A stretch of 64,000 nt of DNA, from assembly GCF_003334335.1 (NCBI RefSeq), contig NZ_QOWQ01000021.1; one strand, given 5' to 3'. The notes below the pieces were generated by a model. It was not told the origin of the DNA. It did not search any database and saw only the letters and a program-made list of their open reading frames with translations. Both the position numbers and the translations under genes were made by a program. Source of the DNA: Escherichia coli. GTDB lineage: Bacteria > Pseudomonadota > Gammaproteobacteria > Enterobacterales > Enterobacteriaceae. This document shows positions 34,705 through 58,916 of the stretch, piece by piece. The first letter of the stretch is position 1. The number at the start of each line of letters is the position of its first letter.

Positions 34705-34810
34705 AACTATCAACCACCATTTATAAATCATAACGTTATGATTTTATTAAGTATACAGATAAAGCAATATGGCGCTATTTGATGCTTTTGTTACTTTTCA
34801 TCGCCACTTT

Positions 34811-35812: not shown

Positions 35813-35846
35813 ATTAAAAAGTGCACACCAAGGAAAATTTTCGTGA

Positions 35847-36104: not shown

Positions 36105-36302
36105 AATTCATTTACCTCTTTGGACTTCCTCATGAACAAAGACTTACTTTTCTTTAAGACCATAACAAGTAATTCACACCATTTCTTACATCACTAGTTG
36201 CCCCCTCCCACCTTTGTCAGCTCGCTTAATTTATCTTTTTCATTTCTTTTAAAGTCGGTAAAGCAAGCTTTTGTCACAATATCTTTCTCCAACAACTATC
36301 TA

Positions 36303-36947
36303 TCAGAAAAGAACACTGCCTAATAAAACACCAACAACGAAACACATTCCTGTTTCTTTCGGGTATTTTCTAATTATTTGCTGAAAATTCATCTGTAATT
36401 GACTACCGGCAGAATTGTTGGCAGTTAATTTCTTTTCTCCTTCCACTGATTGTTGGTCTAACCAGGAAAGAGCCATCTGAAGCTGAGAACGAGTAAGATC
36501 GTTTAAGCGACCCGTTCCGAAATTGATATGGCAATAGCGGATAAGTTTTTGACGAAGCACTCCATCTTCACTATTACGAAGTAAAATACTTACAAGCGCC
36601 TTACGCGCATCATGATCTTTACATCGTTCAAGCATCGCACACAGAAAGCTCTCTGCGGTCTTATATTGATTCATTGTTATATCATCAATACTGTCTACAC
36701 CAATCTCTGCATGCAATTTTTGCCAAATAATAAACGCCTCGGTATTGCTGGCATCTACAATAGCAGCAACTAATCTATTTAATGCCTTCCGTTGCCCCTT
36801 AAGTAAGGGGCGTGGATCACTGTTATTGCTCGAAGGAATTGCGATATTGACGGTATGAGAGCCATCATATCGCCCTATCTGAATATTCTTTTCTTGGTAA
36901 TCTCGCCCAGCAATACGATTATCTGAACCGTTTGAGTTGACCGTCAT
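36303..36947 (-). CDS. hypothetical 214 aa protein with C-terminal hydrophobic anchor (cargo between repressor and integrase)
   Basis: Long ORF with good SD (ggaggtgg before ATG), C-terminal TM-like tail MCFVVGVLLGSVLF; N-terminus shares NRIAGRDY motif with the upstream repressor C-terminus. Confidence 0.7.
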   Translation of the reverse strand: MTVNSNGSDNRIAGRDYQEKNIQIGRYDGSHTVNIAIPSSNNSDPRPLLKGQRKALNRLVAAIVDASNTEAFIIWQKLHAEIGVDSIDDITMNQYKTAESFLCAMLERCKDHDARKALVSILLRNSEDGVLRQKLIRYCHINFGTGRLNDLTRSQLQMALSWLDQQSVEGEKKLTANNSAGSQLQMNFQQIIRKYPKETGMCFVVGVLLGSVLF

Positions 36948-36962
36948 GCCACCTCCTTGCTA

Positions 36963-37367
36963 TCACTTACCCTTTGTTTCGTTATAGTCACGGCCTGCGA
37001 TGCGGTTATTCCCGCCAGAGATATTTAACCCTCCCCCTGATGACTGACTCTCCTTTTCAGTGACTGCACCTTTCAAAGCACCAATCACCGCGTTTTTCAC
37101 ATCTAGTGAGGCACTCCGAAAACGTGTGATCAACTCCTGCTCATCATCGTTATAAGTTTCAGGTGAATGAATTCCCAACACGACATACTGAACATCAAGG
37201 CCAAAACGCGACAACGCTGATAAGTACGCCGCATCAGGAAAGCTATCCCCTTTCTCATATCTAAGTTGGGTTAACTTTTTAACCCCACCAATATCACTCA
37301 TAGCGACTTGGCTAAGACCCAGCCGTTCCCTTTCCTCACGCAACCGTTGGCCAATATCATTTTTCAT
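36963..37367 (-). CDS. XRE-family HTH repressor (immunity repressor, P2 C / CI equivalent)
   Basis: 134 aa; N-terminal HTH_XRE (IGQRLREERERLGLSQVAMSDIGGVKKLTQLRYEKG); leftward, divergent from the cox-like gene as in P2 immunity regions. Confidence 0.8.
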   Translation of the reverse strand: MKNDIGQRLREERERLGLSQVAMSDIGGVKKLTQLRYEKGDSFPDAAYLSALSRFGLDVQYVVLGIHSPETYNDDEQELITRFRSASLDVKNAVIGALKGAVTEKESQSSGGGLNISGGNNRIAGRDYNETKGK

Positions 37368-37376
37368 ACAAAAACC

Positions 37377-37405
37377 TTGACAGGTATCTTTTTTGATACC
37401 AAAAT
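37377..37405 (+). promoter_or_regulatory. candidate early promoter with embedded operator palindrome GGTATC-N6-GATACC
   Basis: TTGACA -35 hexamer, 17 bp spacer containing the perfect inverted repeat ggtatcttttttgatacc, then caaaat; lies between divergent repressor and cox-like genes. Confidence 0.5.
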
Positions 37406-37442
37406 ACTTTCATGAGCCATTAGATGAACACAATATACCACT

Positions 37443-37661
37443 ATGAAACAAGTTGTTCACGACACCAGATCACGGATTCCGCGTAACACAGCTACAGGAC
37501 CGCGACTGGCACTTCGATTGTCAGCAGAAGAGCGAGCCGTCATTGATGAAATGGCAACTAAAGAACAGCGCTCATCCTCTAACATGGCACGCATGATCTT
37601 CCTTCGTGGCCTTGAGATTATCCAGAAAGAGCAAAACCAATCTTCATGCTCAGGAGGTTAA
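37443..37661 (+). CDS. ribbon-helix-helix DNA-binding protein (Cox/Cro/Apl-equivalent first early gene)
   Basis: 72 aa; RLALRLSAEERAVIDEMATKEQRSSSNMARMIFLRGLE fits a strand-helix-helix pattern; first rightward gene after the repressor. Confidence 0.6.
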   Translation: MKQVVHDTRSRIPRNTATGPRLALRLSAEERAVIDEMATKEQRSSSNMARMIFLRGLEIIQKEQNQSSCSGG

Positions 37662-37665
37662 CGGG

Positions 37666-37869
37666 ATGCAAGGTATAACAATAAACATCAACGTTAATGC
37701 CCCTTACGTATCTCTGAAGAAATACGCCGAGATAACAGGCATTCCTCTTAACACATGCAAAAAGATGTTGGCTGACGGTCGAATTATTATCCGCCCCAAA
37801 CGCGCCAAAATGGAAAAACCAGAAGTAAACCTTATAGCTATGTTAAAAGACGCAATAGCCAACAGCTAA
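37666..37869 (+). CDS. small HTH regulatory protein (AlpA/excisionase-like fold, tentative)
   Basis: Internal Met of track ORF 37606..37869; YVSLKKYAEITGIPLNTCKKMLADGRI looks like a short HTH. Confidence 0.5.
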   Translation: MQGITININVNAPYVSLKKYAEITGIPLNTCKKMLADGRIIIRPKRAKMEKPEVNLIAMLKDAIANS

Positions 37870-37936
37870 ACAATGAAGCGAGCATAACTATGAAGAAAAC
37901 GTTTCATTAAAAACATCAAGATTTGAAGGTGTTGAC

Positions 37937-38131
37937 ATGACTGACTCCACTCAAACAAAAGACTTATACAGCGATTTACGATTCATCATCATACAACAGC
38001 AATCAGGCAGACTGGATCCAACACGTGCAAGCAAGGCCTGGAAAGAAGCACTTACCGATCAGGGGATCGATGTAATTAGCGAAGTCATGGCTGAAGTGAT
38101 TTTTAAGCTAACAAGAGACGAATCACTGTAA
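37937..38131 (+). CDS. hypothetical protein, 64 aa
   Basis: Track ORF in the early operon; no family recognised. Confidence 0.45.
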   Translation: MTDSTQTKDLYSDLRFIIIQQQSGRLDPTRASKAWKEALTDQGIDVISEVMAEVIFKLTRDESL

Positions 38132-38156
38132 TCATCGCATAAGGACCGAGTGAAGA

Positions 38157-38480
38157 ATGAAGCAACAACGAAATGCACGCATCAATAACAACACCGAACG
38201 CCACGTTGCACGCCAGCACTTCCGTAAAAATAGTGCGACCGCAACCACTGAAATCCATACCACACCAGACGGTCATCAGATAAAACAAACCGGAAAGCAC
38301 ACCTGGGCGATTGGCGACACTGGCATCGTTATTCACAAAAGTTTTCGTAGCCCTGTTACTGGCAGAATTAATTTTACCCTGACTCGCGGAGATGATTACT
38401 TCGGACAGGACTTCACATTTTTTGAAGCCTTAAGAACGGTCGATCGGTTAATGACTGGTCGTAATTTTCACGCTAAATGA
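38157..38480 (+). CDS. hypothetical basic protein, 107 aa
   Basis: Track ORF, co-directional and tightly packed in the early operon. Confidence 0.5.
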   Translation: MKQQRNARINNNTERHVARQHFRKNSATATTEIHTTPDGHQIKQTGKHTWAIGDTGIVIHKSFRSPVTGRINFTLTRGDDYFGQDFTFFEALRTVDRLMTGRNFHAK

Positions 38481-38493
38481 TACAGATGAAAAC

Positions 38494-38709
38494 ATGGAAA
38501 CATACAAAATTAAAGATATTGAACACCATGACGGTTTTTTCAGCGCTGAACATGTTGCTTGTGTTGTCAGGATTTTCAATGAAGTAGATGTGATTTTGAA
38601 GCAAAACATAAAGCTTGAAATCATCGCAAAAAGCGAAGCAGACGCCATTGAAATAAAAAAAGCTATTGAACGTCAGATAATACAGTTGACAAGTACCATT
38701 GTATTTTAA
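38494..38709 (+). CDS. hypothetical protein, 71 aa
   Basis: Track ORF, early operon. Confidence 0.45.
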   Translation: METYKIKDIEHHDGFFSAEHVACVVRIFNEVDVILKQNIKLEIIAKSEADAIEIKKAIERQIIQLTSTIVF

Positions 38710-38727
38710 GCAACAGGAAAAATAACC

Positions 38728-38967
38728 ATGACCAGAAATTACAAAGAAATCGTCAATCAGATCATTAAGGCTTACAGCCACCGCATTGCAAAATTACCCG
38801 AGTTCATACGCATAATGGAGACGCATTCATTAATGCAAGGACTGAACGGGTTGGCACTGGCCGCATTGGCAGCTAACGATATTGATGCCACCATCGAAAT
38901 AAACAACCTGTTATTAGACATTGAAAAAGGCGGAAACATAGAACCCTACAATCTGGAGGCCGCATGA
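38728..38967 (+). CDS. hypothetical protein, 79 aa
   Basis: Track ORF, early operon; stop overlaps the next small ORF (ATGA). Confidence 0.5.
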   Translation: MTRNYKEIVNQIIKAYSHRIAKLPEFIRIMETHSLMQGLNGLALAALAANDIDATIEINNLLLDIEKGGNIEPYNLEAA

Positions 38968-39089
38968 GCGTATTTCTTTCATGGCTAATTCTGATTATCT
39001 CCGTACTTATGGCAATCGGCATTATGCGAATTATCCACACACTGAAGGATATCGAATTATTCTTTACCGGCGATAAACGCCGTAAATAA
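38964..39089 (+). CDS. small hydrophobic peptide, 41 aa (single TM)
   Basis: ATG preceded by ggagg SD; MSVFLSWLILIISVLMAIGIMRIIHTLKDIELFFTGDKRRK; below ORF-track cutoff, found by manual translation. Confidence 0.5.
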   Translation: MSVFLSWLILIISVLMAIGIMRIIHTLKDIELFFTGDKRRK

Positions 39090-39101
39090 AGCGAAAACGT
39101 T

Positions 39102-39197
39102 ATGAAGAATGTAAAAGCAATACTCACCATTGCCAGTGTGTGGCTGATATTTCAGGTGTGTGCGCTTATCTGGTTAGCCCTGAAGATCTGGGAATAA
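39102..39197 (+). CDS. small hydrophobic peptide, 31 aa (single TM)
   Basis: MKNVKAILTIASVWLIFQVCALIWLALKIWE; weak SD; found by manual translation. Confidence 0.35.
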   Translation: MKNVKAILTIASVWLIFQVCALIWLALKIWE

Positions 39198-39302
39198 CCT
39201 TAAGCTTCAAATAAGAACGCAATAACACCAGAAAACATACGAACAATTAATTAAGGCATTCATGCCATCGGGTTCCCTTTGTCTTTTTTCAGGAGTCAAC
39301 AA

Positions 39303-39527
39303 ATGAGAACAGTCGAATCACCCGCAACCGCCAGACCAGTTAACCATCATGCACATATCAGCATGGCCGCGAGAAAAGCCGAGCGTGCGCATATCTGCGA
39401 ATTGCTCCGAGACCTGGTTAACACGGCGAAAGAGAAGCACTCCTCCCCGCTGGAAACCTGTTCAGCCATTGAACGACTGATTGCAACGCTCACGAACAAC
39501 ACCGAACTGAAGGGGTCAGCGCAATGA
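39303..39527 (+). CDS. hypothetical protein, 74 aa
   Basis: Internal ATG of track ORF 39279..39527 preceded by aggag; stop overlaps the exonuclease start. Confidence 0.5.
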   Translation: MRTVESPATARPVNHHAHISMAARKAERAHICELLRDLVNTAKEKHSSPLETCSAIERLIATLTNNTELKGSAQ

Positions 39528-40105
39528 ACCATCTCATGATTGACACCGAAACACTGGGTAACGGACCGGACGCAGCCATATTCGCGATCGGGGCGGTGTT
39601 TTTCGACCCGTTCACCGGAAAGCTGGGCAAGCAGTTTGAGAAATTCATCGACCCGGTAGATTCAGAACGCAACGGCGGAACCGTCAATGCAGCCACCGCT
39701 GTATGGTGGGCCGGACAATCCGTGGAGGCCAGATCCTGCCTGCGCAACGCAGAGGGAACAGAGCTTGCGGCAGTAACCGAATTTCTGGCGTTCATTTCAC
39801 GCAATATGCATGACGAAAGCACGGGCAATTCACTGACCATATGGTGTAAGGGCGCATCCTTCGATTTCCCGATCCTGAAATCCGCCATAACACGCACAGC
39901 CGGAGAAAAAAGCATCCCCTGGTGCTACTGGAACGAGCGCTGTATGCGCCCGCTTATCGCCATGGCTGAATCAACTGGATGGAAAATGCCAGGCAGATCA
40001 GGAAAAGAGGCCATTGCTCACACCGCGCTGGGCGACGCCATTTACCAGGCAAAGGTCGTGTCAGAAATCTGGCAGCGCTTCACAACACCATTCCTGAACA
40101 TATGA
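39524..40105 (+). CDS. DnaQ-like 3-prime-5-prime exonuclease (DEDDh family)
   Basis: 193 aa; Exo I motif MIDTETLG and Exo III motif HTALGDA. Confidence 0.75.
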   Translation: MNHLMIDTETLGNGPDAAIFAIGAVFFDPFTGKLGKQFEKFIDPVDSERNGGTVNAATAVWWAGQSVEARSCLRNAEGTELAAVTEFLAFISRNMHDESTGNSLTIWCKGASFDFPILKSAITRTAGEKSIPWCYWNERCMRPLIAMAESTGWKMPGRSGKEAIAHTALGDAIYQAKVVSEIWQRFTTPFLNI

Positions 40106-40338
40106 GGTGAAGCCATGGTCGCCATCCTGAATGTGTGTTGCTGCCCCCCCCTGAACGTGGAAAGAAAAGCCCGCGCATCGCTGCGTTTATTCCGCGACGG
40201 CGTGCGGAATTTTTCACGCATAAAACCCCACGACTACCTGGTAATAAGAATCGGTTTCCGCTGGCGATTACTGAGCAAAAACAACGGGGCGTCATGGGAT
40301 TTATTAACGCACGAAACCTATAACAAAGAGGCCGCGTT

Positions 40339-41319
40339 ATGAGCAAAGAACTGTTATCCGGTACGCCACTGAAATGGGTGGGCGGAAAAAGCCGCATCAT
40401 GAACACACTGAAGGCGCACCTGCCAGAAGCCGACTGTCTGGTTGAGCCGTTCGTGGGCGGCGCATCGGTATTCATGAACACCAGTTACAAGCGTTACATC
40501 CTGGGTGATTCCAATGGTGCGCTGATTAATTTCTACCGGCAAGCTAGGGACAACACCGACAGCCTGATCGACGAGGCGAAAACCCTGTTCCTGAACCACA
40601 ACAACAGGGGTGACTATCTCATCATTCGCGAAACCTTTAACGCAGAGAATCATGCCTTCCTGAACAGCAGAACGGGAATAAGCGACCGCCGTGAACTGCG
40701 ACTGGCCGCCATGTTTTTGTACCTGAACCGACACAGCTTTAACGGTTTGTTCCGCGTGAACGGAAAAGGCGATTTTAACGTGCCTTTCGGCTGCTACCGC
40801 AAGCCCTACTTCCCTGAGCGTGAAATCCGCGCATTTGCAGACAAGGCAAACAGCACCCGAACGCTGCTTATCCACGCAGATTTTAAGGATACGCTGAACT
40901 CTGCCAGTCACCTGTTCGGCATGGGCAACACGCTTTGCGTGTACTGCGATCCCCCTTACCTGCAATTCAGTGGCCGGGACAATTTTACCGCCTACGGAAA
41001 ACCATTCGATGAAGACGAGCACGTTCGTCTGAGGGCAGCGCTTGACCGCCTTTCACAGGAAACGGGCGGCATGACCAGCATCACCATCTCCAATTCCGAC
41101 ACACCGGAAACACGACGCATTTATCGGGGTTACCGGATGAACTGCATACAGGCACCACGAAGCGTTGGCGCAAGAACCCGGGAATCAGCACCGGAGGTTA
41201 TCGCCACCCTGAGACAGTGCGACGCCTGCGGTCACCATGGCGGTGGCTACTGCCCGGACTGCGGACCTGTAACGGGAGATGCAACTTACAGCGTGATGTT
41301 TACCCCTGCCAGTACGTGA
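40339..41319 (+). CDS. Dam-family DNA N6-adenine methyltransferase with C-terminal Cys-rich extension
   Basis: 326 aa; FxGxG SAM motif (VEPFVGGASVF) and catalytic DPPY; C-terminus CDACGHHGGGYCPDCGP looks like a zinc ribbon. Confidence 0.85.
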   Translation: MSKELLSGTPLKWVGGKSRIMNTLKAHLPEADCLVEPFVGGASVFMNTSYKRYILGDSNGALINFYRQARDNTDSLIDEAKTLFLNHNNRGDYLIIRETFNAENHAFLNSRTGISDRRELRLAAMFLYLNRHSFNGLFRVNGKGDFNVPFGCYRKPYFPEREIRAFADKANSTRTLLIHADFKDTLNSASHLFGMGNTLCVYCDPPYLQFSGRDNFTAYGKPFDEDEHVRLRAALDRLSQETGGMTSITISNSDTPETRRIYRGYRMNCIQAPRSVGARTRESAPEVIATLRQCDACGHHGGGYCPDCGPVTGDATYSVMFTPAST

Positions 41320-41354
41320 ATAAACAGATGAATCAGTAACACCGGAGTCAGGAA

Positions 41355-41591
41355 ATGAATAGCGAAAACAACAAAGAGCTTTTGCGGGAATTGCGTCTCA
41401 TCGCCCGTGCACATGAGGAAGCAGCAAAAGTTATCGCTGCTGCTGGAAGACCAGAGCTCGTTATCGCTTCAGCAATCTCACTGAGGATCACCATGGAAGC
41501 AATCCGGGTGATTCAGGATCAGGAAAGTGAAATCGCCACCCTTAAAAAGCAGCTCAACGAGAAATCTGCCGGGCAAAGGAGTCAGCAATGA
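41355..41591 (+). CDS. hypothetical protein, 78 aa
   Basis: Track ORF; predicted helical; early operon. Confidence 0.45.
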   Translation: MNSENNKELLRELRLIARAHEEAAKVIAAAGRPELVIASAISLRITMEAIRVIQDQESEIATLKKQLNEKSAGQRSQQ

Positions 41592-41806
41592 TCCAGGAAT
41601 CAACCGTTATCCGGTTCACAGCCAACGGCCGTCAGTACGAGGTAGACGAAGCCCTGATTGATTACAGCATGACCCGCCAGAGCTCACGCTTTCAGGACAT
41701 GTACCACATCCGGCTAATCAACGGTTCGTCTTTCAACGCCACAAACGTGGAAGAAGTACGCGTGCTGACAGCAACACGCAACACGGGAGGTAAAGCGTGG
41801 CAGTGA
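41588..41806 (+). CDS. hypothetical protein, 72 aa
   Basis: Track ORF overlapping neighbours by a few nt, indicating translational coupling. Confidence 0.45.
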   Translation: MIQESTVIRFTANGRQYEVDEALIDYSMTRQSSRFQDMYHIRLINGSSFNATNVEEVRVLTATRNTGGKAWQ

Positions 41807-42147
41807 TTTATATCGCCGGCCCCATGACCGGATACGAAGACTGCAATAGAACGGCGTTTTGCCTGGAGGATCTGAAGCTTCGGTGCGCCGGAAACATCGT
41901 TCTTAATCCTGCCGTACTGCCTGACGGATTAAGCCAGCAGCAGTACATGAGTATTTGTATTCCGATGCTCATGTGTGCCGATGCCATTTACTTACTGGAT
42001 GGATGGGAAGAATCCGCTGGCGCACGGGCTGAGTACGCAATGGCGCTCAAACTGAACATGCCAGTGTCATTCCCGGAAAACCGGGCAGCCGTCGAAACCG
42101 TCGCGCAGCTGCTTCACAAATCAAAAGCCACACAGGCGACTGAGTAA
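41797..42147 (+). CDS. DUF4406 / nucleoside 2-deoxyribosyltransferase-like protein
   Basis: 116 aa; VIYIAGPMTG ... LLDGWEESAGARAEYAMALKLNMPV resembles the small Rossmann-like DUF4406 family common in prophages. Confidence 0.6.
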   Translation: MAVIYIAGPMTGYEDCNRTAFCLEDLKLRCAGNIVLNPAVLPDGLSQQQYMSICIPMLMCADAIYLLDGWEESAGARAEYAMALKLNMPVSFPENRAAVETVAQLLHKSKATQATE

Positions 42148-42585
42148 CCGACCGGAGATCGAAACATGATTGCGCGAAGAGCTGCCAACCGCCTCACAGG
42201 CTTTATTCCAGGCAAGGTTGATCATGCACTCCATCACGGCGCTGTCACTTTCCTCAACAAAGGAGAGGCGCGCAATCATGCATTCTGGGGTGAGCACGTG
42301 GCGCTGGCTAATCAGTCTTTGATAGCTAAGCGCCTGCCATTCAGCCTTTTCAGCTCTGATAGAAAGAGAGGCAGCCATGACCTGCCACACCAGAAAGAGC
42401 ACCACACTGGCGAAAACAAACGTTGCGCTGTCGCAAAAAATGAATGCGGCAACAATCGCAAGGAAAGCGCTAATCCTCAGAACCAAGGAAGCGCGACGGT
42501 GGAGAAGGCTTGTCATGTGTTCAAGCCAGTAGCTGTACCACAGGTCAAAAAGAATTTCGTAATCAGAAGGGAGCTTATCACTCAT
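42121..42585 (-). CDS. hypothetical membrane protein (about 154 aa, 2 TM) encoded antisense to the early operon
   Basis: Track ORF 42121..42768; first ATG at 42585 gives MSDKLPSDYEILFDLWYSYWLEHM... with two hydrophobic helices; its 3-prime end overlaps the DUF4406 gene convergently by about 27 nt. Confidence 0.55.
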   Translation of the reverse strand: MSDKLPSDYEILFDLWYSYWLEHMTSLLHRRASLVLRISAFLAIVAAFIFCDSATFVFASVVLFLVWQVMAASLSIRAEKAEWQALSYQRLISQRHVLTPECMIARLSFVEESDSAVMECMINLAWNKACEAVGSSSRNHVSISGRLLSRLCGF

Positions 42586-42765
42586 CAGAAACACCCCGCG
42601 TATGCAGACAATCACCAGTTGCCAGGTGATATTAATTCGCAACATTCTAACCACATCAGCACGCAACACAAAAACCGCTTGCCAGCGCTCGTCGTGTCGG
42701 GTTACATTTCCGCTGCACCTCATAAAACGGGTGCCGGGATTTCCACCCCGCTGACAAACGAAGCG

Positions 42766-42790
42766 CACAGCCGCGCCAGCGGTTTTTTTG
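42766..42790 (+). terminator. terminator-like hairpin plus T-run in non-coding gap
   Basis: ccgc-gcca-gcgg followed by ttttttt. Confidence 0.35.
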
Positions 42791-43258
42791 TGCGTACTGT
42801 ATCGCCACGTCTTTTTCGCGTCAGAATTATGGCGGGGCGTACAGGGCCGACTTCGGTCGGGCCGGTTTCTTCGTTTGCCGGTTGTGGAAACCCTGTACGT
42901 CTCGCCACCCTGAGTTTTCCACCTCTGGTTGGTGAGTTTTCAAAATTCACAAACGAAGAGGCCACACCATGGCAAACCGCAAGCAACAGCGCGCCCGCGC
43001 TGAGCGTCTTCACATCCACAGCGAAATCAACCGCAGACTTTTCCGCGCAACACGCGTCGCGCAAATCATGCATATCAACATGCTGCATGAGCGCACGCAC
43101 GCACTATCAAACCGTTACTGCGCTGCCGTCTTCAGCTATCTGGCCGAAGACCTGGCAGAACTGCAAAGCCTCATCAACCAGCACCGATAAACCACATCCG
43201 GAAGCTATCCCACACCTGCACGCGGGAGGCTTCCGCACATCTGTTACCGGAGGTTCTC

Positions 43259-43675
43259 ATGAAGAGCGTTAAGGGACTTTCAGATATTCAGGACTTTTTT
43301 AACTGGATGTGGGCGGAGGATCCCCTGCTGGCTTCCCGCCTGAACGACTGGCACGACTGTTACCGTCGCGCCTGTAAACAGGCTGCCCGCAGCGTCACCA
43401 CATACGGGGATTTCTCCTTCACCGTTGACGATCGTTACCGCGTGGACGTGAAAGGTGATGGTGATGGCTTTGGTTTATTTCACATCAACGGCATCGACAG
43501 CACCACCATCAGCTGGTCGTCATCAGAGATGGCGCTTGTGCTGGAGATGACAAACCACAGCGTGGCCGTGAAAGGTATATACACCGCAGAAGACTTTATC
43601 GGTGAATACCAGCGCCTTCTCATGCTGTACCGCGCGGCGTTTCAGGCGGCAACTGCCGGGGAGTGCGACGCATGA
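43259..43675 (+). CDS. hypothetical protein, 138 aa (upstream of A; B/orf-equivalent position)
   Basis: Track ORF; stop overlaps the start of gene A (ATGA). Confidence 0.55.
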   Translation: MKSVKGLSDIQDFFNWMWAEDPLLASRLNDWHDCYRRACKQAARSVTTYGDFSFTVDDRYRVDVKGDGDGFGLFHINGIDSTTISWSSSEMALVLEMTNHSVAVKGIYTAEDFIGEYQRLLMLYRAAFQAATAGECDA

Positions 43676-46185
43676 GCGACCATAACGCACAACTGGCGTA
43701 CCCGTGGAACGCCCCGCTGCAAGTTATCGATCCTGAAACGTTCGGCAGAGCGCAACCAACCGCATTACGCCAGGTCATTCAGAGCTACATCAACGAAGAC
43801 ATTCGCATTGATGCCAGACTAGATGAAGAAACCGTCGCCTTCCTGACAAACACAGACGAAGGCAAGCGAATTAATTTGCATCTTCACCGCGACGAAGAGC
43901 GTCGGATCAGACTGGAAAAAGTGGTGCGGCGCAAACGCGAATATCCGCCCACGCTGGTATCGAAAGCCATGGCAGAACTTCGCGCCCTGCCCTCGTTTCT
44001 TGGTAACGCGCTCATTCGTGATCTGGCGCGTTTAAACCGCAAACAGCAAAGCGCCCGCCATGAAGGCGTGAAAAACAACAATACACACGTGGCTGATAAC
44101 TTTGTTCGCCGTGGACTGCGCACACGCCTGAAACGCATCGAACAGGTGAATGAACGCTTCGCCACGACAGCATTCAAAGCCACCGCAGCGCGTCATCGCC
44201 TTGATGAATTACTCATGCTGCCACAACTCAACCGTGATCAAATTCAGCGCCTTGCCACACTAACGGCGGCGGCATTTTCCACCGAACTGGAACGCATATG
44301 TGATGAAGTTACTGAGCGGACAGGAAAAGGTGACGATAACCTGTTCACCTGGTTGCTGACTTACCAGCAGCTGGCGCGCATGGCGTTAAAACTGGGCGTG
44401 ACCCCACCATACTGGCCGTCACTCGAGATCAGACGTGACCGCCGCACGGCACCAGACCCTGAACTGGTACCGGGTGCGGTAATGCGTATCACCTGCGCCA
44501 CCTGGTGGAACAACCAGCTGCGCCACCTCGCAGATCTCTGGCGGGAGGAATTACTGCGTGCCGCCGGAAGAGTATCGCGCAAGGCATCCCCCTACATCAG
44601 TCATGAGTCACTCCAGGAATTCCGGGAGAAACGCCAGCGCACCCGTGATTTTCTCAAAAGCTGGGACATTGAAAACGAAGACGGTGAACGCCTGAGTCTG
44701 GAGGACGTGTACTGGTCAGGGCTGGGGAATCCGCGCAACCGCCGCAACGAGATGATGGCCTGCGTCAGAGGGATGGAACAGGTCGCCGAATCGCGTGGTG
44801 ACTCCGCGTTCTTCGTGACAGTAACCTGCCCTTCCCGCTTTCACAGCGTGAACGAGGACGGCAGCCTGAACCCGAAATACAACGGTGCCACCGTGCGCGA
44901 TGCCAGTGATTATCTGGTTTACGACGTCTTTGCAGCTGCAAGAAAAAAACTCAACAAAGAAGGCCTGAGCTGGTACGGGGTGCGCACCGTTGAGCCACAC
45001 CATGACGGCACACCACACTGGCACATGCTAGTATTCACTTCCCCGGACAATGAAGAACGCATCATTGAAATCATGCGTGACGCAGCAATCAAATCAGATC
45101 GCGCAGAACTGGGGAATGATATTTCTCCGCGCTTCAAGTGCGAAAAAATCGACCCGGCAAAAGGCACACCGGCAAGCTACATCGCAACCTATATCGGCAA
45201 GAACCTGGACACCAGCACCTTCCATAACAATGACCCGAAAACCGGCAAACCTTACGCCGATAAAGAATCGGGAAAAACCATGGCGGAAACCGTGGAAAAC
45301 GCCATTGCCTGGGCGAGTCTCCATCGCATCCGTCAGTTCCAGTTCTTCGGAATCCCGCCCCGCCAGGTATGGCGTGAACTCCGCCGCCTTGCCGGACAGA
45401 TGGAGCGCAACCCCGCATCACCGAAGCGCCTGGACCATGACGACATTGACGCCATTCTGGCCGCCGCTGACGTGGGGTGTTTTGCCACCTACATCAACCG
45501 TCAGGGCGGCGTGCTCATTCCACGCAACCTGTACCTGATCCGCACCGCATACGAAACCGCAGATGAGGCCAATGATTACGGGGAATTTCCTCAACGTATC
45601 TGGGGAATATGCGCCCCGTCGCTCGGCGAGCGCTACACCATCTGTACCCATCCGGACGAATGGAAACTGGTCAGAAAAGAAGCGAAAACCGACAACAGCA
45701 CGGACGAGGATTTTGACGTTGGGGGCGGCTTCGCCGCACCTTGGACTCGTGGCAATAACTGTCCCCATGATGAAAAAACAGACACCGGAGAGGGTAAAAC
45801 CCCACCACCGGAAACCAGGAAAGAACAAAAACTGGTCGTCCCGGGAGGTGATTTGGGTGAGTGGTTAAGGTCACTGACCCCCACAGAGCGAAAACAACTC
45901 ACCAGGCAGCTGAAAGATGCGCCATCTGACACAAAAACCGTGAAAACCGGCGGCCCCACCACGCCCGATGACGTCATACATGTGCGTACAGCATTGCCGC
46001 TGACTGACGTCACCACCACCGTAATCAAGTCGGCACTGAGCGCGACGGGCGAGGAGCTACACAGTGGCGCAGCACTTTCCGTACACAGAGGTGCACGCGT
46101 TCGCCTGCCTGACGGGCGGATTGTGCACTGGGATGAGAAATCACGAAGCCTGGTGGCAGCAGATCAACCGGAGGTGAACCCATGA
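43672..46185 (+). CDS. A: rolling-circle replication initiator endonuclease (P2 gpA family)
   Basis: Track ORF 43663..46185; HUH-type motif HWHMLVF and twin-tyrosine motif ASYIATYIGKN as in P2 A. Confidence 0.88.
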   Translation: MSDHNAQLAYPWNAPLQVIDPETFGRAQPTALRQVIQSYINEDIRIDARLDEETVAFLTNTDEGKRINLHLHRDEERRIRLEKVVRRKREYPPTLVSKAMAELRALPSFLGNALIRDLARLNRKQQSARHEGVKNNNTHVADNFVRRGLRTRLKRIEQVNERFATTAFKATAARHRLDELLMLPQLNRDQIQRLATLTAAAFSTELERICDEVTERTGKGDDNLFTWLLTYQQLARMALKLGVTPPYWPSLEIRRDRRTAPDPELVPGAVMRITCATWWNNQLRHLADLWREELLRAAGRVSRKASPYISHESLQEFREKRQRTRDFLKSWDIENEDGERLSLEDVYWSGLGNPRNRRNEMMACVRGMEQVAESRGDSAFFVTVTCPSRFHSVNEDGSLNPKYNGATVRDASDYLVYDVFAAARKKLNKEGLSWYGVRTVEPHHDGTPHWHMLVFTSPDNEERIIEIMRDAAIKSDRAELGNDISPRFKCEKIDPAKGTPASYIATYIGKNLDTSTFHNNDPKTGKPYADKESGKTMAETVENAIAWASLHRIRQFQFFGIPPRQVWRELRRLAGQMERNPASPKRLDHDDIDAILAAADVGCFATYINRQGGVLIPRNLYLIRTAYETADEANDYGEFPQRIWGICAPSLGERYTICTHPDEWKLVRKEAKTDNSTDEDFDVGGGFAAPWTRGNNCPHDEKTDTGEGKTPPPETRKEQKLVVPGGDLGEWLRSLTPTERKQLTRQLKDAPSDTKTVKTGGPTTPDDVIHVRTALPLTDVTTTVIKSALSATGEELHSGAALSVHRGARVRLPDGRIVHWDEKSRSLVAADQPEVNP

Positions 46186-48630: not shown

Positions 48631-49674
48631 TCAGCTGGCGCCATCCTGAAGCAGCGAATAGGGATTAAAGCGCATCACTTCAACCCCAAGCCATTCATTG
48701 ACATGCTTCATCGCTTCCATGACCGGTTGCAACTCGTTGATGAAAAATACCCTCGCCGCCTTCTCAACGTCACCGAACGCCGCGTTCCCGTCAGGCATTG
48801 CCCCCATCAGCTGAGGCGGTACACGGTGAGCCGCAAGGATATCGTCGCGGGCACTCCCCTTGATGTTAAGGAATTCGTCCTTCGCGGTGATTTGCTGGAA
48901 CGGCAGTATTTGCACACCATCCTTGCCGCCACCTGGCGCGTGCAGAAGGATATTGCGGAACGCCCCCTTGCCACGGGATTCCGTGAGTGTTTTCTTGATG
49001 GCTTCCACGCTTTCAGCGTTTGCCTGGGCGGCACCAACATAGACAATGCACCCGGCATGTGAACCGTTGTCATAGTAGAGCTTGCGGAACGTATCCGCTG
49101 AGTTCGACAGACTCACCGACAGCAACCCACCGATATACTCCGGCATCCCGTAGATTTCCTGGTTGATATCGGGGTTCAGAACGTGGCACACAGCCCCCTT
49201 ACGGAAAGCAAATTCAGAACCATCATCATTGAGGTACCAGTACGTATCGAGATCACTGCCCCGCCGCGTGTATTTCGCCAGCGCAGGACGAAGCGCAATG
49301 GGTTCACCGAACTTGTTGCGGCGGACTTCAAGATAGGCATTACCGAACACGAACCAGTCCAGCGCAAACGCGGAAAACGCCTGGCGGGACAGTAGCGGAT
49401 GAGGAACAAAGCAGCCGTTCAGGGCATTACGCTTAAAATACAGGGCCGACTGGTGCCATGATGCACGACGCGAGGCGCGAGCAATGGCATTCCAGTCCAT
49501 GGGGGTGTCATAGTAGCGGCCATTATCGGCGCACGACATGTTATCAAGCAGATCAAGACGGCTTGCTTCATAAGGACCGTCAAACGTGAAAGCACTGAGT
49601 GACGGCGCTGATTTCAGTGCATCAGCCAGTGAGCCCGTGCCGCGCTTTCCGGTGTATTTTTTACGTTTACTCAT
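48631..49674 (-). CDS. Q: portal protein (P2 gpQ family)
   Basis: 347 aa; position next to terminase large subunit, leftward as in P2. Confidence 0.85.
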   Translation of the reverse strand: MSKRKKYTGKRGTGSLADALKSAPSLSAFTFDGPYEASRLDLLDNMSCADNGRYYDTPMDWNAIARASRRASWHQSALYFKRNALNGCFVPHPLLSRQAFSAFALDWFVFGNAYLEVRRNKFGEPIALRPALAKYTRRGSDLDTYWYLNDDGSEFAFRKGAVCHVLNPDINQEIYGMPEYIGGLLSVSLSNSADTFRKLYYDNGSHAGCIVYVGAAQANAESVEAIKKTLTESRGKGAFRNILLHAPGGGKDGVQILPFQQITAKDEFLNIKGSARDDILAAHRVPPQLMGAMPDGNAAFGDVEKAARVFFINELQPVMEAMKHVNEWLGVEVMRFNPYSLLQDGAS

Positions 49675-49679
49675 TGTGT

Positions 49680-51458
49680 TCAGAACTCCATTGCAAAGCC
49701 ACGATTATCCTCACGCTCTGCGCCGATTGGCTCATTGATAACAGCAAGCATGGTTGCCCAGGCGAGATCACCATGACTGACACCGCGTGAGCGGTCAGTG
49801 TCATAGGTGATATAGCCGCCGGGCGTCTGTATTTTTCGCACCGATGCAAAGGCCTGTACCAGGTCGCGCTCGCTGCGGTCATACTCCCAGCGTCCGGCAC
49901 GGACCACCTGAAGCATCTTCATGACCAGCGCCCGCTTTGAAGCGATATTAAAGTTATACGGAACAGCCAGGGGGAAGAATTTTTTCACTATCTGATAAAC
50001 CCCTTCCCCGTTCCCGCCGGTGACATCAATCCCGATATGCTTCACATTGTATTTTTGGGTGTACTCCTCAATCAGGGCGGCCTGCTGTTCAAACTCCATG
50101 CCCTGAACCCTGACGGTTTCCACCGTACGAAAACGCCCACCGGCAACAAGGGGTGGCACGCACACCGACAGCGCCCCGCAGTCCCCCTTCCCGCTGCTGC
50201 CGTTGGCGTCATACCCGAGCCAGACTTCCCTCACCCCCATAGGGCGGACAGCAAAAGGCTTCCAGTCCGGCCATTCGTCATAGCCATCAACACCGCACCC
50301 GACGAGCGTATTCAGACTGAAGGCTGCCTCACCATCACGGACAAATTCGCACATGTACAGATTGCGAAATTCACTTTCTGTATTTTCGCCGCGAATATCA
50401 TCAATACTGGTGAACTGCCATCCGTTAGCGACAGCATCCTCAATGGTGACAATCTGCCGCCACGTTTTGTCGGGAAAGAGCACGCCCCTCTTCAGGTGAG
50501 CATGTGAAACATCAAACTCACTGCGTTTTGAGCGTGGCTGTTCGCTGTTCCAGCGGTCCCCCGTCCAGAACTGATACGCCTCATGCATTTCCCCCGACGG
50601 CGTCGAGAAGTAAGTGCGCGTAAGCCCTTCCAGGGTCGCCATTGCCCCGGCAACCTTCCTGAGGTTCACAAAGTTACTGACCCAGAAAAATTCGTCGAAT
50701 TTAAGATGACCGGTATAGGACTGCGCGGTGGCAGCTGACGTACCGAGGAAGTGCAGCTCCGCGCCGTTGGACAGCACGATCTTGTCGCCCCCTTTCAGCT
50801 CAACATCCACTTCCAGCGCCGCCTGCTGAATAAAATGCTTGAACTGATACGCCTGACGACGGGAGGCGGACAAAAATATCTGGTTGCGCTGACACCCGGC
50901 GGAGACGTCATCACGCAGTGCATCAAGGAGCGCCTCGCGCGCAAAATACCAGGTCGCACCAATCTGACGCGACTTCAGGATCATACGGTTGCGGTGGTGA
51001 CGGTTTTCGTACCATTCACGTTGATGCCACGCCAGCGTCGGGAGGATTTTTTCACGAAGCGCGACAATCTGTTCTTCGGTGAAGTGATTTTTCAGTCTGC
51101 GTTTACGGGGCTTTTTACCGGAAACGGCCTGTTCTCCCTGACCGTCATTCAGTTTTTTCAGCTGGCGCGTGAGAAGGTCAATTTCCTTAAAATCGCTGCC
51201 GCTTTTCTCTGTTTTTGTGGTGAGCTGGATCAGGCGCGCATCAATGGACTGGGTGACCCGCTGGATCGGAGGTGTGGCATCCCACTCATCGCGTTTTTTC
51301 CATGAGTAAATCGTGTTCTGGCTGATCCCCATCAGTTGCGAGATTTCCGCAGGTGTGTACCCTTGCCAGTAAAGTTGTCTTGCCCTTATGCGGACAAATG
51401 CATCCTGAATCATTGACGCCCCCTTGCTGTTTGATCTCAAGAGTAAACGCCCGCGCAT
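49680..51458 (-). CDS. P: terminase large (ATPase) subunit (P2 gpP family); start may be internal
   Basis: 592 aa track ORF; N-terminal HTH-like segment and downstream ATPase/nuclease regions; size matches P2 gpP. Confidence 0.85.
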   Translation of the reverse strand: MRGRLLLRSNSKGASMIQDAFVRIRARQLYWQGYTPAEISQLMGISQNTIYSWKKRDEWDATPPIQRVTQSIDARLIQLTTKTEKSGSDFKEIDLLTRQLKKLNDGQGEQAVSGKKPRKRRLKNHFTEEQIVALREKILPTLAWHQREWYENRHHRNRMILKSRQIGATWYFAREALLDALRDDVSAGCQRNQIFLSASRRQAYQFKHFIQQAALEVDVELKGGDKIVLSNGAELHFLGTSAATAQSYTGHLKFDEFFWVSNFVNLRKVAGAMATLEGLTRTYFSTPSGEMHEAYQFWTGDRWNSEQPRSKRSEFDVSHAHLKRGVLFPDKTWRQIVTIEDAVANGWQFTSIDDIRGENTESEFRNLYMCEFVRDGEAAFSLNTLVGCGVDGYDEWPDWKPFAVRPMGVREVWLGYDANGSSGKGDCGALSVCVPPLVAGGRFRTVETVRVQGMEFEQQAALIEEYTQKYNVKHIGIDVTGGNGEGVYQIVKKFFPLAVPYNFNIASKRALVMKMLQVVRAGRWEYDRSERDLVQAFASVRKIQTPGGYITYDTDRSRGVSHGDLAWATMLAVINEPIGAEREDNRGFAMEF

Positions 51459-51480
51459 TCATCCAGGTATCCGGTGCCAT

Positions 51481-51498
51481 TGTCGCCACGCTCTTACA
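51481..51498 (+). promoter_or_regulatory. candidate Ogr/Delta-type late-promoter activator site (TGT-N12-ACA)
   Basis: tgt cgccacgctctt aca about 75-90 nt upstream of the O start codon in the divergent P/O intergenic region. Confidence 0.45.
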
Positions 51499-51570
51499 AC
51501 ATCGCCGCCTTGAGGCGCAGCCATCCCCTTATCATCATGAAGAAAAGCAACCCACAGAAAGGGGATTTAC

Positions 51571-52407
51571 ATGGCAAGTAAAAACGCGCCAGTACGGAAA
51601 AAATTCCGCGTCGCCGTCTCGGGCACCACCATCGACGGGCGTGAGATTTCGGGGCTGATGTTGCGTCAGGCCGCTGAGAATTACGACCCGGAAGTGTGGG
51701 GGTCACGGGTGAACGTGGAGCACATGCTTTCACGTATGCCATCCAGTGAATTCAGTGCCGTGGGCGATGTGATTTCACTGTCCACCGAAGAAATCAGGGA
51801 AGGCAAACTGGCCGGCCGCACCGCACTGTATGCCGAAATTGAGCCCACCGACCGCATGACGCAGATGCTGAATGATGGCAAGAAAATCTACTCAAGCATT
51901 GAGCTTGAACCCAACATTGATGCCGTTGGCGGCCCTTACGTAATTGGCCTGGCAATGACCGATACCCCGGCAAGTCTCGGCACTGAACGACTGAAGTTTG
52001 CCGCCCAGCAGCGCGCCAGCATCATGCAGTTCAACAGCCGCAACGGTGAGCCAGTCATGTTCACCGAATGTATGGAAGCGGAACTCGCGGCCTCCGTACA
52101 GGACAGCACCGAAGAAAGCCAGAAATGGTTTTCGCGCGTCATGGCGCTCATCAGCAAAACCCGTGACACGGACAGCGAGCAGTTCGCTCACGTGCGCGAA
52201 GCCGTCGAGAGCATTGCCACGGAACAGGCCGGCCTTCTGGATCGCTTCCATGCGATGGAAGAGCAACAGCGCAGTGATAAGGCATCACTGGAAACCCTGA
52301 CCCGCGAACTGACTGAACTGAAGGCGCAGCTGAAAACCGAAGATGCAGACAAGGAACAGCGCTTTGCTTCAACCGGTGGCAACAGCCACGCCCTGGCTGA
52401 TTTTTAA
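51571..52407 (+). CDS. O: capsid scaffolding protein (P2 gpO family)
   Basis: 278 aa; conserved segments (F..GV.G.T.DGR.IS, Y.S.E..PN, G.Y..GLA.TD.PASLGTE.L.F) align with my recollection of P2 gpO. Confidence 0.85.
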   Translation: MASKNAPVRKKFRVAVSGTTIDGREISGLMLRQAAENYDPEVWGSRVNVEHMLSRMPSSEFSAVGDVISLSTEEIREGKLAGRTALYAEIEPTDRMTQMLNDGKKIYSSIELEPNIDAVGGPYVIGLAMTDTPASLGTERLKFAAQQRASIMQFNSRNGEPVMFTECMEAELAASVQDSTEESQKWFSRVMALISKTRDTDSEQFAHVREAVESIATEQAGLLDRFHAMEEQQRSDKASLETLTRELTELKAQLKTEDADKEQRFASTGGNSHALADF

Positions 52408-56544: not shown

Positions 56545-58515
56545 ATGAGCAAAAAACACTTTGAACTGATTACTGCCACCAACCGCGCAGAATTCGCTGA
56601 AAAAGTTAACAAGCGATTACAGGAAGGCTGGGAACTTCTCGGTAATGCCGGTATTGCATCAGAGCCGGGAGTCCCCTGGTATCTCATGCAGGCTATGGTT
56701 TCAGGCAGTGATGACCAGGGAGGCACCATTATCACCCCGACATCCGACAGCGAACCGGAGTGGTATTACGTTGTGGTGAGCGCTGGTCAGTCCAACTCTA
56801 TGGCATACGGTGAGGGGTTACCTCTCCCGGACAGTTACGATAAACCCGATTCGCGCATTCGCCAGCTGGCACGCCGCAGCACCGTAACCCCGAGCGGAAA
56901 AGCCTGTGCCTATAACGACATCATTCTGGCGGATCACTGCCTGCATGACGTGCAGGATATGAGCCAGTACAACCACCCGAAAGCCGACCTGAACAAAGGT
57001 CAGTATGGCTGTGTGAGTCAGGGATTGCACATTGCGAAGCGCCTGCTGCCATTTATCCCGGCAAATGCGGGGATCCTTCTGGTCCCATGCAGCCGTGGCG
57101 GTTCCGGCTTTACAACCGGTGATGCGGGGCAATTCAGCGAGATCGGCGGCGCAACTGAAAAATCCTGCCGCTGGGGAACGAACACGCCGCTGTACAAGGA
57201 TTTAATCAGCCGCACAAAAGCAGCGCTGGCGAAAAATCCGAAAAACGTCCTGCTGGCCGTCTGCTGGACACAGGGCGAGGCAGATCTTGAGAAAGAACAA
57301 AACGCCGCACAGCATAAAGATCTTTTCACAGCCATGGTGAAGCAGTTCCGGGCTGACCTGGCCGATGTTGCGAAGCAGTGCAACCAGGGCAACCCTGAAA
57401 GCGTGCCGTGGATTTGTGGAGATACCACCTACCACTGGAAAAAAACCTACGAAGCACAGTACGCAACCGTGTATGGCGGATACAAAAACAGCACTGAGAA
57501 GAATATTGTTTTTGTGCCTTTTGTTACGGATGAGTACGGGAAAAACACCCCAACAAACGAGCCGACAGAAGATCCGGATATTGCGGAAGCGGGTTATTAC
57601 GGTGCCGCATCCCGCAGTAGCGGAAACTGGGTAAGCCATCTGCGTGGAACGCACTTCAGCTCATGGGCCCGCCGGGGCATTATTGCCGATCGCATGGCGT
57701 CAGCAATCCTGCTTAACGTCGGCCGCACGCTGCCATTTATTGCGGGTACAGAGCCGGAACGCGTGGCAAAACCATCACAGGATGCACCGGGCGGCATCAG
57801 TAAGCCATCTTCACCGGAAGCAGAACAACCGGCAGTCAGACCGGGGCCGGTCACGCTCATGAGTCTGCTGGCATCATCTCCTGAACTGGAAAGCCAGGGC
57901 TGGACGCTGAGCGAAGGCAAAAACGGGGCCAACACACCAAAACAACTGAAAGACACGCTGATCGGTGATGAGGAAGCAACAGGGAAAAAAGCCCTGAAAC
58001 TGACCAAACAGGAAGGCAATACCTGGTATCTGGAGCATAAGGCCGGTAATGGTGCTGACCTTCTGAAAAATGGCGGGACTGTAAGTTGCCGATTCAAAAT
58101 CGAGGGTGAGCTGAAAAAAGACCAGTACGCAATGGCGATGTACTGGAAAACATCAGCATTACCGCAGGATGTGAAATTACTGGGGGCAGATCCAAATAAT
58201 TTATTGCTCTCATTCTTTCTTCAGACAGACAGCGCAAACCTGAATCTGATGTATCACAAAACGCCAAACGAACAACTGGGAACCTTTGGTCAGTTCAATA
58301 ACAACTGGCACACCATAGCGTTTCGTTTTGCGGGAAACAACAGCACCCAGGTAACACCGGTTCTGGATGGCGTGGACGGAAAACCGTTCATGCTTTCCAC
58401 ATCAAAAGCCGATGTTACCAACGACACGTTACGCGTGACCGATATCACGTATCGGCCGACCTATACCGTACTGATTGACAGCCTGAGCGTTGTCGTAAAT
58501 CAGCCACCGGCATAA
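56545..58515 (+). CDS. NanS-p-like prophage sialate O-acetylesterase (DUF1737 + SGNH hydrolase + C-terminal domain)
   Basis: 656 aa; N-terminal MSKKHFELITATNRAEFAEKVNKRLQEGWELLG (DUF1737-like), SGNH block VVVSAGQSNSMAYGEG, overall size as in prophage NanS-p esterases. Confidence 0.75.
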   Translation: MSKKHFELITATNRAEFAEKVNKRLQEGWELLGNAGIASEPGVPWYLMQAMVSGSDDQGGTIITPTSDSEPEWYYVVVSAGQSNSMAYGEGLPLPDSYDKPDSRIRQLARRSTVTPSGKACAYNDIILADHCLHDVQDMSQYNHPKADLNKGQYGCVSQGLHIAKRLLPFIPANAGILLVPCSRGGSGFTTGDAGQFSEIGGATEKSCRWGTNTPLYKDLISRTKAALAKNPKNVLLAVCWTQGEADLEKEQNAAQHKDLFTAMVKQFRADLADVAKQCNQGNPESVPWICGDTTYHWKKTYEAQYATVYGGYKNSTEKNIVFVPFVTDEYGKNTPTNEPTEDPDIAEAGYYGAASRSSGNWVSHLRGTHFSSWARRGIIADRMASAILLNVGRTLPFIAGTEPERVAKPSQDAPGGISKPSSPEAEQPAVRPGPVTLMSLLASSPELESQGWTLSEGKNGANTPKQLKDTLIGDEEATGKKALKLTKQEGNTWYLEHKAGNGADLLKNGGTVSCRFKIEGELKKDQYAMAMYWKTSALPQDVKLLGADPNNLLLSFFLQTDSANLNLMYHKTPNEQLGTFGQFNNNWHTIAFRFAGNNSTQVTPVLDGVDGKPFMLSTSKADVTNDTLRVTDITYRPTYTVLIDSLSVVVNQPPA

Positions 58516-58579
58516 CAATGCTTCCCAGCCATCCGGCGGGGAAGCTCGCTGACAACCGGGAAAATAAAAGGAGCAAGCC

Positions 58580-58744
58580 ATGGGATTTATTCATCAGATA
58601 ATGTTGTATTTCAGTACCGCCGTATCCCTTCTGTATCTGATCTCAGGGGGATATAAAGCCGTCCGCAATTTCTGGAACAAAAAGATAGATGAAGCAGCCG
58701 CCAGGAAATCAGCTGGCGGAGCGGTCAACGGGGTATTGCCATAA
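58580..58744 (+). CDS. small hydrophobic protein, about 54 aa
   Basis: ATG preceded by aaggag; MGFIHQIMLYFSTAVSLLYLISGGYKAVRNFWNKKIDEAAARKSAGGAVNGVLP; found by manual translation. Confidence 0.45.
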   Translation: MGFIHQIMLYFSTAVSLLYLISGGYKAVRNFWNKKIDEAAARKSAGGAVNGVLP

Positions 58745-58796
58745 CAACAGGCACAGCGCATCAGAACGGCACCACTGTCCACAGCAAAAGAAACAA

Positions 58797-58820
58797 AAAA
58801 CCCTCCGGTATACGGAGGGT
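58797..58820. other. stable hairpin in the esterase-R intergenic region
   Basis: ccctccg gtatac ggaggg, preceded by an A-run but not followed by a T-run on the + strand. Confidence 0.4.
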
Positions 58821-58916
58821 GCAAGAGGGGAAAGGTGAGCAAGAAAGAACCCGAATTAAAAGCCATTTAATTTTGAGATTTTTAATTGCCACACGCAACA
58901 CGTTCTACGGTGTTTT

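Follow-up and report, generated by a model that had tools for sequence, protein, structure and literature searches.

The 64,000-nucleotide stretch of DNA analyzed here (the window) is from Escherichia coli, and its left 34.5 kb spans torYZ to yecA. Next to yecA, a prophage of ~38 kb occupies an insertion site at the leuZ end of the glyW-cysT-leuZ tRNA cluster (Table 1); ARAGORN detected no intact tRNA in the window. At an identity of at least 99%, this prophage variant is present in 12 of 5,426 complete E. coli genomes. Comparison with E. coli G1/2 (NZ_CP060083; window positions 34800 to 42700) shows the prophage to be a mosaic: it shares 99% identity in the late region with a prophage beside dmsABC there, its integrase/immunity end is unrelated to that prophage, and its early region (38958 to 43429) is only ~96% identical. 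When the P/O region was searched against phage records, megablast returned no near-identical record, and a more sensitive search placed the nearest records, namely, Enterobacter phiT5282H, the P88-like Xuanwuvirus group, Klebsiella 3LV2017, and ST16-OXA48phi5.4, at ~70% DNA identity.

PHROGs searches identified the late module as P2-type, with the head genes in the order Q, P, O, N, M, L. The divergent P/O setting described in the first-pass annotation was borne out, as PHROGs assigned P (minus strand) to the terminase large subunit and O (plus strand) to the head scaffold. After O lie N, M, L, X, genes for a holin and an endolysin, Rz/Rz1, a 656-amino-acid open reading frame (ORF), a 54-amino-acid ORF, R, S, V, W, J, and I, and the rightward operon O-N-M-L-X-lysis probably continues to R-S-V-W-J-I-H.

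The longest ORF for P starts at 51458. An alternative ATG at 51413 has a Shine-Dalgarno sequence (AAGGGGG), yields a protein equal in length to the homologues, and corresponds to the start called by PGAP in the identical copy in NZ_CP060083. The true start of P is probably 51413, and the longest-ORF start is probably wrong. With P starting at 51413, the P/O gap extends from 51414 to 51570 and measures 157 bp instead of 112 bp.

Table 1. Prophage features and predicted elements of the P/O gap (window coordinates)
Feature	Coordinates	Strand	Basis or remark
att repeat, 124 bp	34581-34704		Identical to the far end of the EC2 prophage; overlaps the 3' part of tRNA-Leu (leuZ)
Integrase	34811-35887		
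Replication gene A	43663-46185		
Q, portal, second gene of the leftward operon	48631-49674	-	PHROGs portal protein, E = 3.6e-142
P, terminase large subunit, first gene of the leftward P-Q late operon	49680-51413	-	PHROGs
TTTACT, inferred pP -10 (4 of 6)	51442-51447	-	43 nt from the dyad center, mirror-symmetric to pO
TGT-N12-ACA dyad, putative Ogr-family late-activator site	51481-51498	.	Sequence; constant distance from O in 53 of 54 relatives; carries the most information of any block in the gap
ACAACA, invariant "strong" arm	51496-51501	+	Invariant in the 8-sequence alignment; 1.96 bits/position over 54 sequences
TTGAGG, weak -35-like hexamer of pO (inferred)	51510-51515	+	17 nt upstream of CATCAT; TTGAG in most relatives
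TATCAT, alternative pO -10	51530-51535	+	
CATCAT, inferred pO -10	51533-51538	+	Starts 44 nt from the dyad center; block kept in the clade consensus
O, capsid scaffold/protease, first gene of the rightward operon	51571-52407	+	PHROGs head scaffolding protein, E = 1.6e-86

The P/O dyad and its conservation in relatives

Direct reading of the sequence returned, at 51481 to 51498, the string that the first-pass annotation had given for this position (tgtcgccacgctcttaca). This 18-mer, TGTCGCCACGCTCTTACA, is an exact TGT-N12-ACA dyad centered at 51489.5, the consensus being defined from PMC3931495, PMC3152322, and the GenBank annotation of P2. The symmetry extends one base further on each side, to TTGT-N12-ACAA (51480 to 51499). 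The dyad center lies 2.5 bp from the midpoint of the 157-bp gap, 76.5 nt from the start codon of P, and 81.5 nt from that of O.

The bare TGT-N12-ACA formula is not enriched: shuffles predict 16.5 ± 3.7 matches in the window, which has 15, and composition predicts 6.1 in the 29.2-kb prophage part, which has 6. The pattern alone consequently proves nothing, and the case for the site depends on its context. The chance of finding at least one match anywhere in the 157-bp gap is ~0.03, while the chance of finding one centered within 8 bp of the gap midpoint is ~0.0035. A further late-region match at 62492, inside gene I and ~54 nt before H, was rejected as a chance occurrence, because P88, 3LV2017, and P2 do not conserve it, no -10-like hexamer lies at the appropriate distance from it, and matches are as frequent as chance predicts.

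Other matches lie elsewhere in the window. The only other exact TTGT-N12-ACAA, TTGTATAATTAAATACACAA (1779 to 1798), is itself a longer palindrome; it belongs to the host DNA, ~35 to 55 bp ahead of the start codon of torY (minus strand), and has no relation to the prophage. The matches also brought up TGTGATGCAGATCACA (22070 to 22085), a perfect CRP-type palindrome (TGTGA-N6-TCACA) that comparison with the EC2 annotation placed in the uspC-flhD intergenic region; presumably, this is the CRP site already known at the flhDC promoter. Two similar matches 132 bp apart, TGTTCCTGAACCACAACA (40586 to 40603) and TGTACCTGAACCGACACA (40718 to 40735), both lie inside the phage DNA adenine methylase gene, and this pair suggests an internal repeat in that gene.

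We aligned the P/O gaps of eight phages from five genera. The invariant columns comprised ACAACA and both T's of the left arm (T-x-T) at N12 spacing, and conserved islands were found at both of the inferred -10 positions. A wider sample was drawn from IMG/VR using O proteins 48 to 94% identical to that of the window, which gave 54 distinct sequences upstream of O. T[GC]T-N12-ACA was present in 53 of these P/O gaps, always at -94 to -90 from the start of O, and T[GC]T-N12-ACAACA was present in 51. Given that the window site lies 90 nt upstream of O, the "suitable distance upstream of O" proposed in the first-pass annotation agrees with the spacing in its relatives. The orientation was likewise fixed throughout this sample, with the ACAACA arm always toward O. 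Within the same loci, the density of the motif was 4.9 per kb in the gaps versus 0.46 per kb in the flanking P/O coding sequence, and the 54 gaps contained 32 different 12-nt spacers.

The two arms of the dyad are not equally conserved. ACAACA carried 1.96 bits/position and the left arm 1.44 bits/position, relative to ~0.6 to 1.0 for most of the remaining gap; the only comparable block was the predicted -10 zone of pO (1.45 bits/position). An exact TGT left arm was found in 19 of the 54 gaps, and most of the clade has TCT; the subgroup to which the window belongs is the closest to the P2 consensus. Mutagenesis of P2 and P4 promoters, ascribed to Grambow 1990, Van Bokkelen 1991, and Julien and Calendar 1995, is said to have shown that the TGT and ACA triplets matter. 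Since most clade members nevertheless have TCT, recognition in this clade may differ in detail, and the asymmetric T[G/C]T-N12-ACAACA form suggests a mode of recognition unlike that of the symmetric TGT/ACA textbook form.

A second site and the Ogr-type activator gene

The same prophage was located in complete genomes by an exact-protein lookup of gene I. The copies are 99.2 to 99.7% identical to the window over the first 10.7 kb of the 12.2-kb overlap and 97.9 to 99.3% identical over all of it. Beyond the point corresponding to the window edge, they continue with H, a G-like gene, an inverted FI-FII-E-T-U block (minus strand), D, a 100-amino-acid Ogr_Delta protein gene (plus strand), and hok/gef. 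The FI-FII-E-T-U block runs opposite to its orientation in P2 and away from D-ogr, a layout that is the same in P88 and 3LV2017, and the toxin gene after ogr, at the right end of the prophage, is of the hok/gef type. The ogr gene and second site of the window's own prophage are thus inferred from copies 99.3 to 99.7% identical to it over the overlapping late region.

No C4 zinc-finger ORF turned up in the prophage part of the window when its six reading frames were scanned with a regular expression. The first-pass annotation had expected an ogr-like gene beyond the window, and the copies indeed have one directly after D, ~7.7 kb past the right edge. The encoded homologue (WP_032149160.1/WP_047645051.1) is 100 amino acids long, has a full-length match to Pfam PF04606 Ogr_Delta (E = 1.6e-15), and shares 46% identity with P2 Ogr across 54 residues (E = 7e-16). 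Its cysteines are spaced CX2C-X24-CX4C, compared with X22 in P2, and its C-terminal tail is longer. Unannotated Ogr-like zinc-finger ORFs also lie directly after D in P88 (NC_026014, ~34485; MFRCPLCGASARIRTSR...) and 3LV2017 (NC_047817, ~33289; MFKCPICGAVAKTRTSR...). The motif and an Ogr_Delta gene co-occur in every genome examined, P88 and 3LV2017 included.

In the copies, TGTGGGGATTTTTTTACAACA occupies the center of the 153-bp divergent FI/D gap, and its right flank is TT-ACAACA, as at the window site. Each 20.7-kb copy locus contains two exact TGT-N12-ACA matches, namely, TGTGGGGATTTTTTTACAACA and the apparently fortuitous match in gene I. When the 11-base motif TGT-N10-TTACAACA was used instead, the only zero-mismatch matches in this prophage were the P/O and FI/D sites. 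A search of both strands of the complete P88 and 3LV2017 genomes found T[GC]T-N12-ACAACA at exactly two positions in each, one in the P/O gap and the other in the FI/D gap. Diverged relatives keep the FI/D site but with different spacers, and 59 of 63 loci that have the inverted arrangement carry it. E. coli EC2, which carries the window's left end and insertion site, has the same FI/D site along with D, an identical Ogr homologue, and hok. The absence of similar elements at the other late promoters, which the first-pass annotation had named as refuting its reading, was thus not observed, since the FI/D gap carries one, in EC2 as well.

The first-pass annotation had proposed a scan for further sites upstream of P, V, and F. 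P probably shares the site of O and F has the FI/D site; no separate V promoter is possible, because S and V overlap. The inverted F operon would share its site with D-ogr. A third activator site upstream of R (58745 to 58916) was considered and rejected, since this interval contains no match within 2 mismatches and aligns poorly with P88 and 3LV2017. Only an isolated ACAACA (58744 to 58749) is present; it lacks a left arm and overlaps the stop codon of the DUF1378 ORF. With no site before R and with S and V overlapping, the tail genes from R to G must be read from pO, and a pO transcript of ~13 kb that crosses the inserted 656-amino-acid ORF and a hairpin at 58800 to 58820 must be assumed.

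The region between the lysis cassette and R has features of its own. The 656-amino-acid ORF (window 56545 to 58744; Pfam DUF1737, SASA, and DUF6645; phrog_143) is accompanied there by the 54-amino-acid DUF1378 ORF, which has a strong Shine-Dalgarno sequence. Both ORFs are absent from P88 and 3LV2017 and therefore look like an inserted accessory ("moron") module of the late operon; the SASA domain suggests that the larger one encodes a carbohydrate esterase. The hairpin, CCCTCCG-GTATA-CGGAGGG, is GC rich, follows an A-run on the plus strand, and is located after the inserted ORFs and ahead of R. As an intrinsic terminator it scores for minus-strand transcription alone, yet the neighboring genes are all on the plus strand; its candidate roles include an attenuator, a remnant of the insertion, or another function.

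Predicted promoter geometry and probable function of the P/O site

In the P2 record (NC_001895), one activator site (3057 to 3087) is annotated for both pO and pP, whose transcripts start at 3127 (plus strand) and 3016 (minus strand). The center of the P2 dyad, 3071.5, is 55.5 nt from each mapped start. Applying this 55.5-nt rule to the dyad center of the window predicts that pO starts at ~51545, with a 26-nt leader, and that pP starts at ~51435, with a leader of 21 nt up to the P start codon (51413). Hexamers of the form nAnnAT lie 43 to 44 nt either side of the window dyad, compared with 44 to 45 nt in the mapped P2 promoters. Across this prophage, P88, and 3LV2017, the -10 offset was 43 to 45 in all 12 inferred promoters; CATCAT is kept at offset 45 in P88 and 3LV2017, and the predicted -10 zone of pP coincides with an AAGAGTA/AAGATTA block that is conserved in relatives.

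The core pO and pP promoters predicted in this way are weak, with poor -35 elements, and the TTTACT of pP has no -35 match at all. A simple consensus scan, at the level of sequence, detected no self-sufficient sigma-70 promoter in the P/O gap, which is consistent with activator dependence. [quoted passage not shown] With its center ~55 nt from both predicted starts, the window site would allow an activator to contact alpha at two weak sigma-70 promoters.

Taken together, these results make it highly probable that the dyad is the shared upstream activator site of the back-to-back promoters pO and pP and that it is bound by the prophage's own Ogr homologue. The first-pass reading of a P2-type activator site is thus supported by the P2-type module, the distance to O, the second site, and the Ogr homologue; its placement upstream of O also stands, but not a use specific to O, since the site is probably common to pP and pO as in the P2 record. 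The prophage belongs to the P88-like clade of the P2-like Peduoviridae, and its Ogr/Delta zinc-finger protein would bind the dyad late in the lytic cycle. From ~55 nt upstream of both starts, the bound activator would reach the C-terminal domain of RNA polymerase alpha, directing rightward transcription of O-N-M-L-X-lysis and onward from pO and leftward transcription of P-Q from pP. The FI/D site would do likewise for the FI-FII-E-T-U tail genes and would put ogr under its own control. What the analysis shows is the dyad, its position and conservation, the second site, and an activator gene in the same type of prophage; that Ogr binds the dyad, exactly where transcription begins, and that the site works in both directions are inferred.

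Since the formula specifies only six bases, a functionless chance match has to be weighed, and both the chance-level frequency of TGT-N12-ACA in the window and in its prophage part and the apparently fortuitous match at 62492 speak for it. A chance match would not be expected, however, to fall 2.5 bp from the gap midpoint or to keep a constant offset across 53 of 54 diverged relatives whose spacers and flanks have drifted. Nor would it explain a second site that shares 11 specified bases in the sole other divergent late gap or an extended motif confined to these two gaps in the P88 and 3LV2017 genomes. Its conservation together with the second site rules out a chance match, and its position likewise puts it beyond chance; this explanation is barely credible. 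Recognition by a different protein, whether a phage regulator or a host factor, or an RNA element is very unlikely. It would accommodate the TCT found in place of TGT in most clade members, and binding by Ogr is itself a prediction; TGT-N12-ACA is also the site of PpsR/CrtJ in photosynthetic bacteria, so the formula is not specific. Against it stand the restriction of the motif to two divergent late-gene gaps per genome (P88 and 3LV2017), the geometry of the mapped Ogr-dependent promoters of P2, the Ogr_Delta gene found alongside the motif in every genome examined, and the TGTTGT/ACAACA arm common to P2's own sites. Among specific candidates, PpsR/CrtJ is irrelevant in E. coli, which is not known to have a PpsR, and CRP was rejected because the site does not fit TGTGA-N6-TCACA. 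An RNA element or hairpin was likewise rejected: the site had no Rfam match at E values up to 1, and 193 of 200 shuffles gave a more stable fold than the one predicted for it (z = +1.63).

It is also conceivable, albeit unlikely, that the dyad is a genuine Ogr-type site serving pO only, with P-Q transcribed from another promoter or through another geometry. The asymmetry of the site, whose ACAACA is always on the O and D side and whose left arm is weaker, would fit such an arrangement, as would the weak -10 of pP, which matches at 4 of 6 positions. The P2 record nevertheless has one site for pO and pP with starts placed symmetrically at 55.5 nt, and the corrected start of P gives the window the same symmetry. 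A conserved block falls exactly at the -10 position of pP, and the gap has neither another conserved dyad nor a consensus promoter for P. The orientation of the strong arm does not favor pO either: in the one-directional pV and pF of P2, the strong TGTTGT arm is the one farther from the promoter, and in this clade the strong arm is likewise farther from pP and pF. A site shared by pO and pP remains the reading that we prefer.

Comparison with P2 and other phages

The resemblance to P2 is close. Both have divergent P and O genes, a single partial-dyad site in the middle of the gap, an Ogr-family gene after D, and a shared TGTTGT/ACAACA arm; in both, the center of the site lies ~55 nt from each start (mapped in P2 and predicted here), the -10 hexamers lie at 43 to 45, and the -35 elements are poor. 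The first-pass annotation had given TGT-N12-ACA as the P2 formula, which the window matches exactly but which describes P2 itself loosely, since none of the three annotated P2 sites conforms: those of pO/pP and pF are TGT-N12-CCA, and that of pV is TGT-N11-ACA. What does recur is TGTTGT, the reverse complement of ACAACA, which is found in the pO/pP and pV sites of P2 (GGTTGT at pF), and it is the ACAACA arm that is invariant in the clade of the window. In contrast to the TGT-N12-CCA of P2, the window dyad is exact and extended to TTGT-N12-ACAA; its strong arm points toward O rather than toward P, and the gap measures 157 bp rather than 173 bp. Whereas P2 has separate pV and pF promoters, S and V overlap here, and the F operon is inverted and shares the D-ogr site.

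The P88-like set, consisting of Xuanwuvirus P88, Novemvirus phiT5282H, Reginaelenavirus 3LV2017, and Reipivirus ST16-OXA48phi5.4, has the same gene order, including the inverted FI-U block diverging from D, as well as two motif-bearing gaps, an Ogr-like ORF after D, and the invariant ACAACA at the same offset. Most of these phages differ from the window in having a TCT left arm, so they give no match to TGT-N12-ACA, and they lack the 656-amino-acid SASA/DUF6645 ORF and the DUF1378 insertion present here before R. We found no published description of late promoters in the P88-like clade, and the P88 genome paper is silent on Ogr.

We lean slightly toward the view that the P88-like clade runs its whole late program from two bidirectional, asymmetric sites whose left arm tolerates TCT and that are recognized in a distinct mode, compared with three sites serving four promoters in P2. 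If this two-site layout is correct, the position of ogr under its own site would constitute direct positive feedback, and a single ~13-kb transcript would run from pO through the lysis genes and the "moron" gene to the tail-fiber genes. Taken by itself, the site is a regulatory element of the ordinary kind for a P2-like prophage and is individually annotated nowhere; as the result is what P2 biology predicts, it opens no new question, and the clade-wide layout is mildly new, a modest refinement. It does provide a concrete, testable late-promoter map for this type of E. coli prophage and for a broad Enterobacteriaceae P2-like clade whose public records are without these sites and sometimes without ogr. 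The textbook TGT-N12-ACA makes a poor search tool, being unenriched and matching exactly in 19 of 54 clade members and at no P2 site, whereas T[G/C]T-N12-ACAACA picks out the sites cleanly when position is also taken into account.

Stenotrophomonas phage Smp131 offers a parallel from a distant host and lineage. The consensus described for it is TGT-N12-ACA, and its putative promoters PP' and PO' are the same 18 bp on opposite strands (PMC3931495). As here, the prediction was made from sequence alone, and the Ogr-like protein there has the spacing CX2CX22CX4C; unlike the present prophage, Smp131 has four predicted sites, including separate tail promoters (PMC3931495). The Delta activator of P4 and the B activator of 186 belong to the same Pfam family, Ogr_Delta, as the activator of this prophage, and the two-site layout with its asymmetric arm could matter for predicting cross-activation by P4-like satellites. 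The target promoters of P4 Delta and 186 B have the same dyad architecture at -55.
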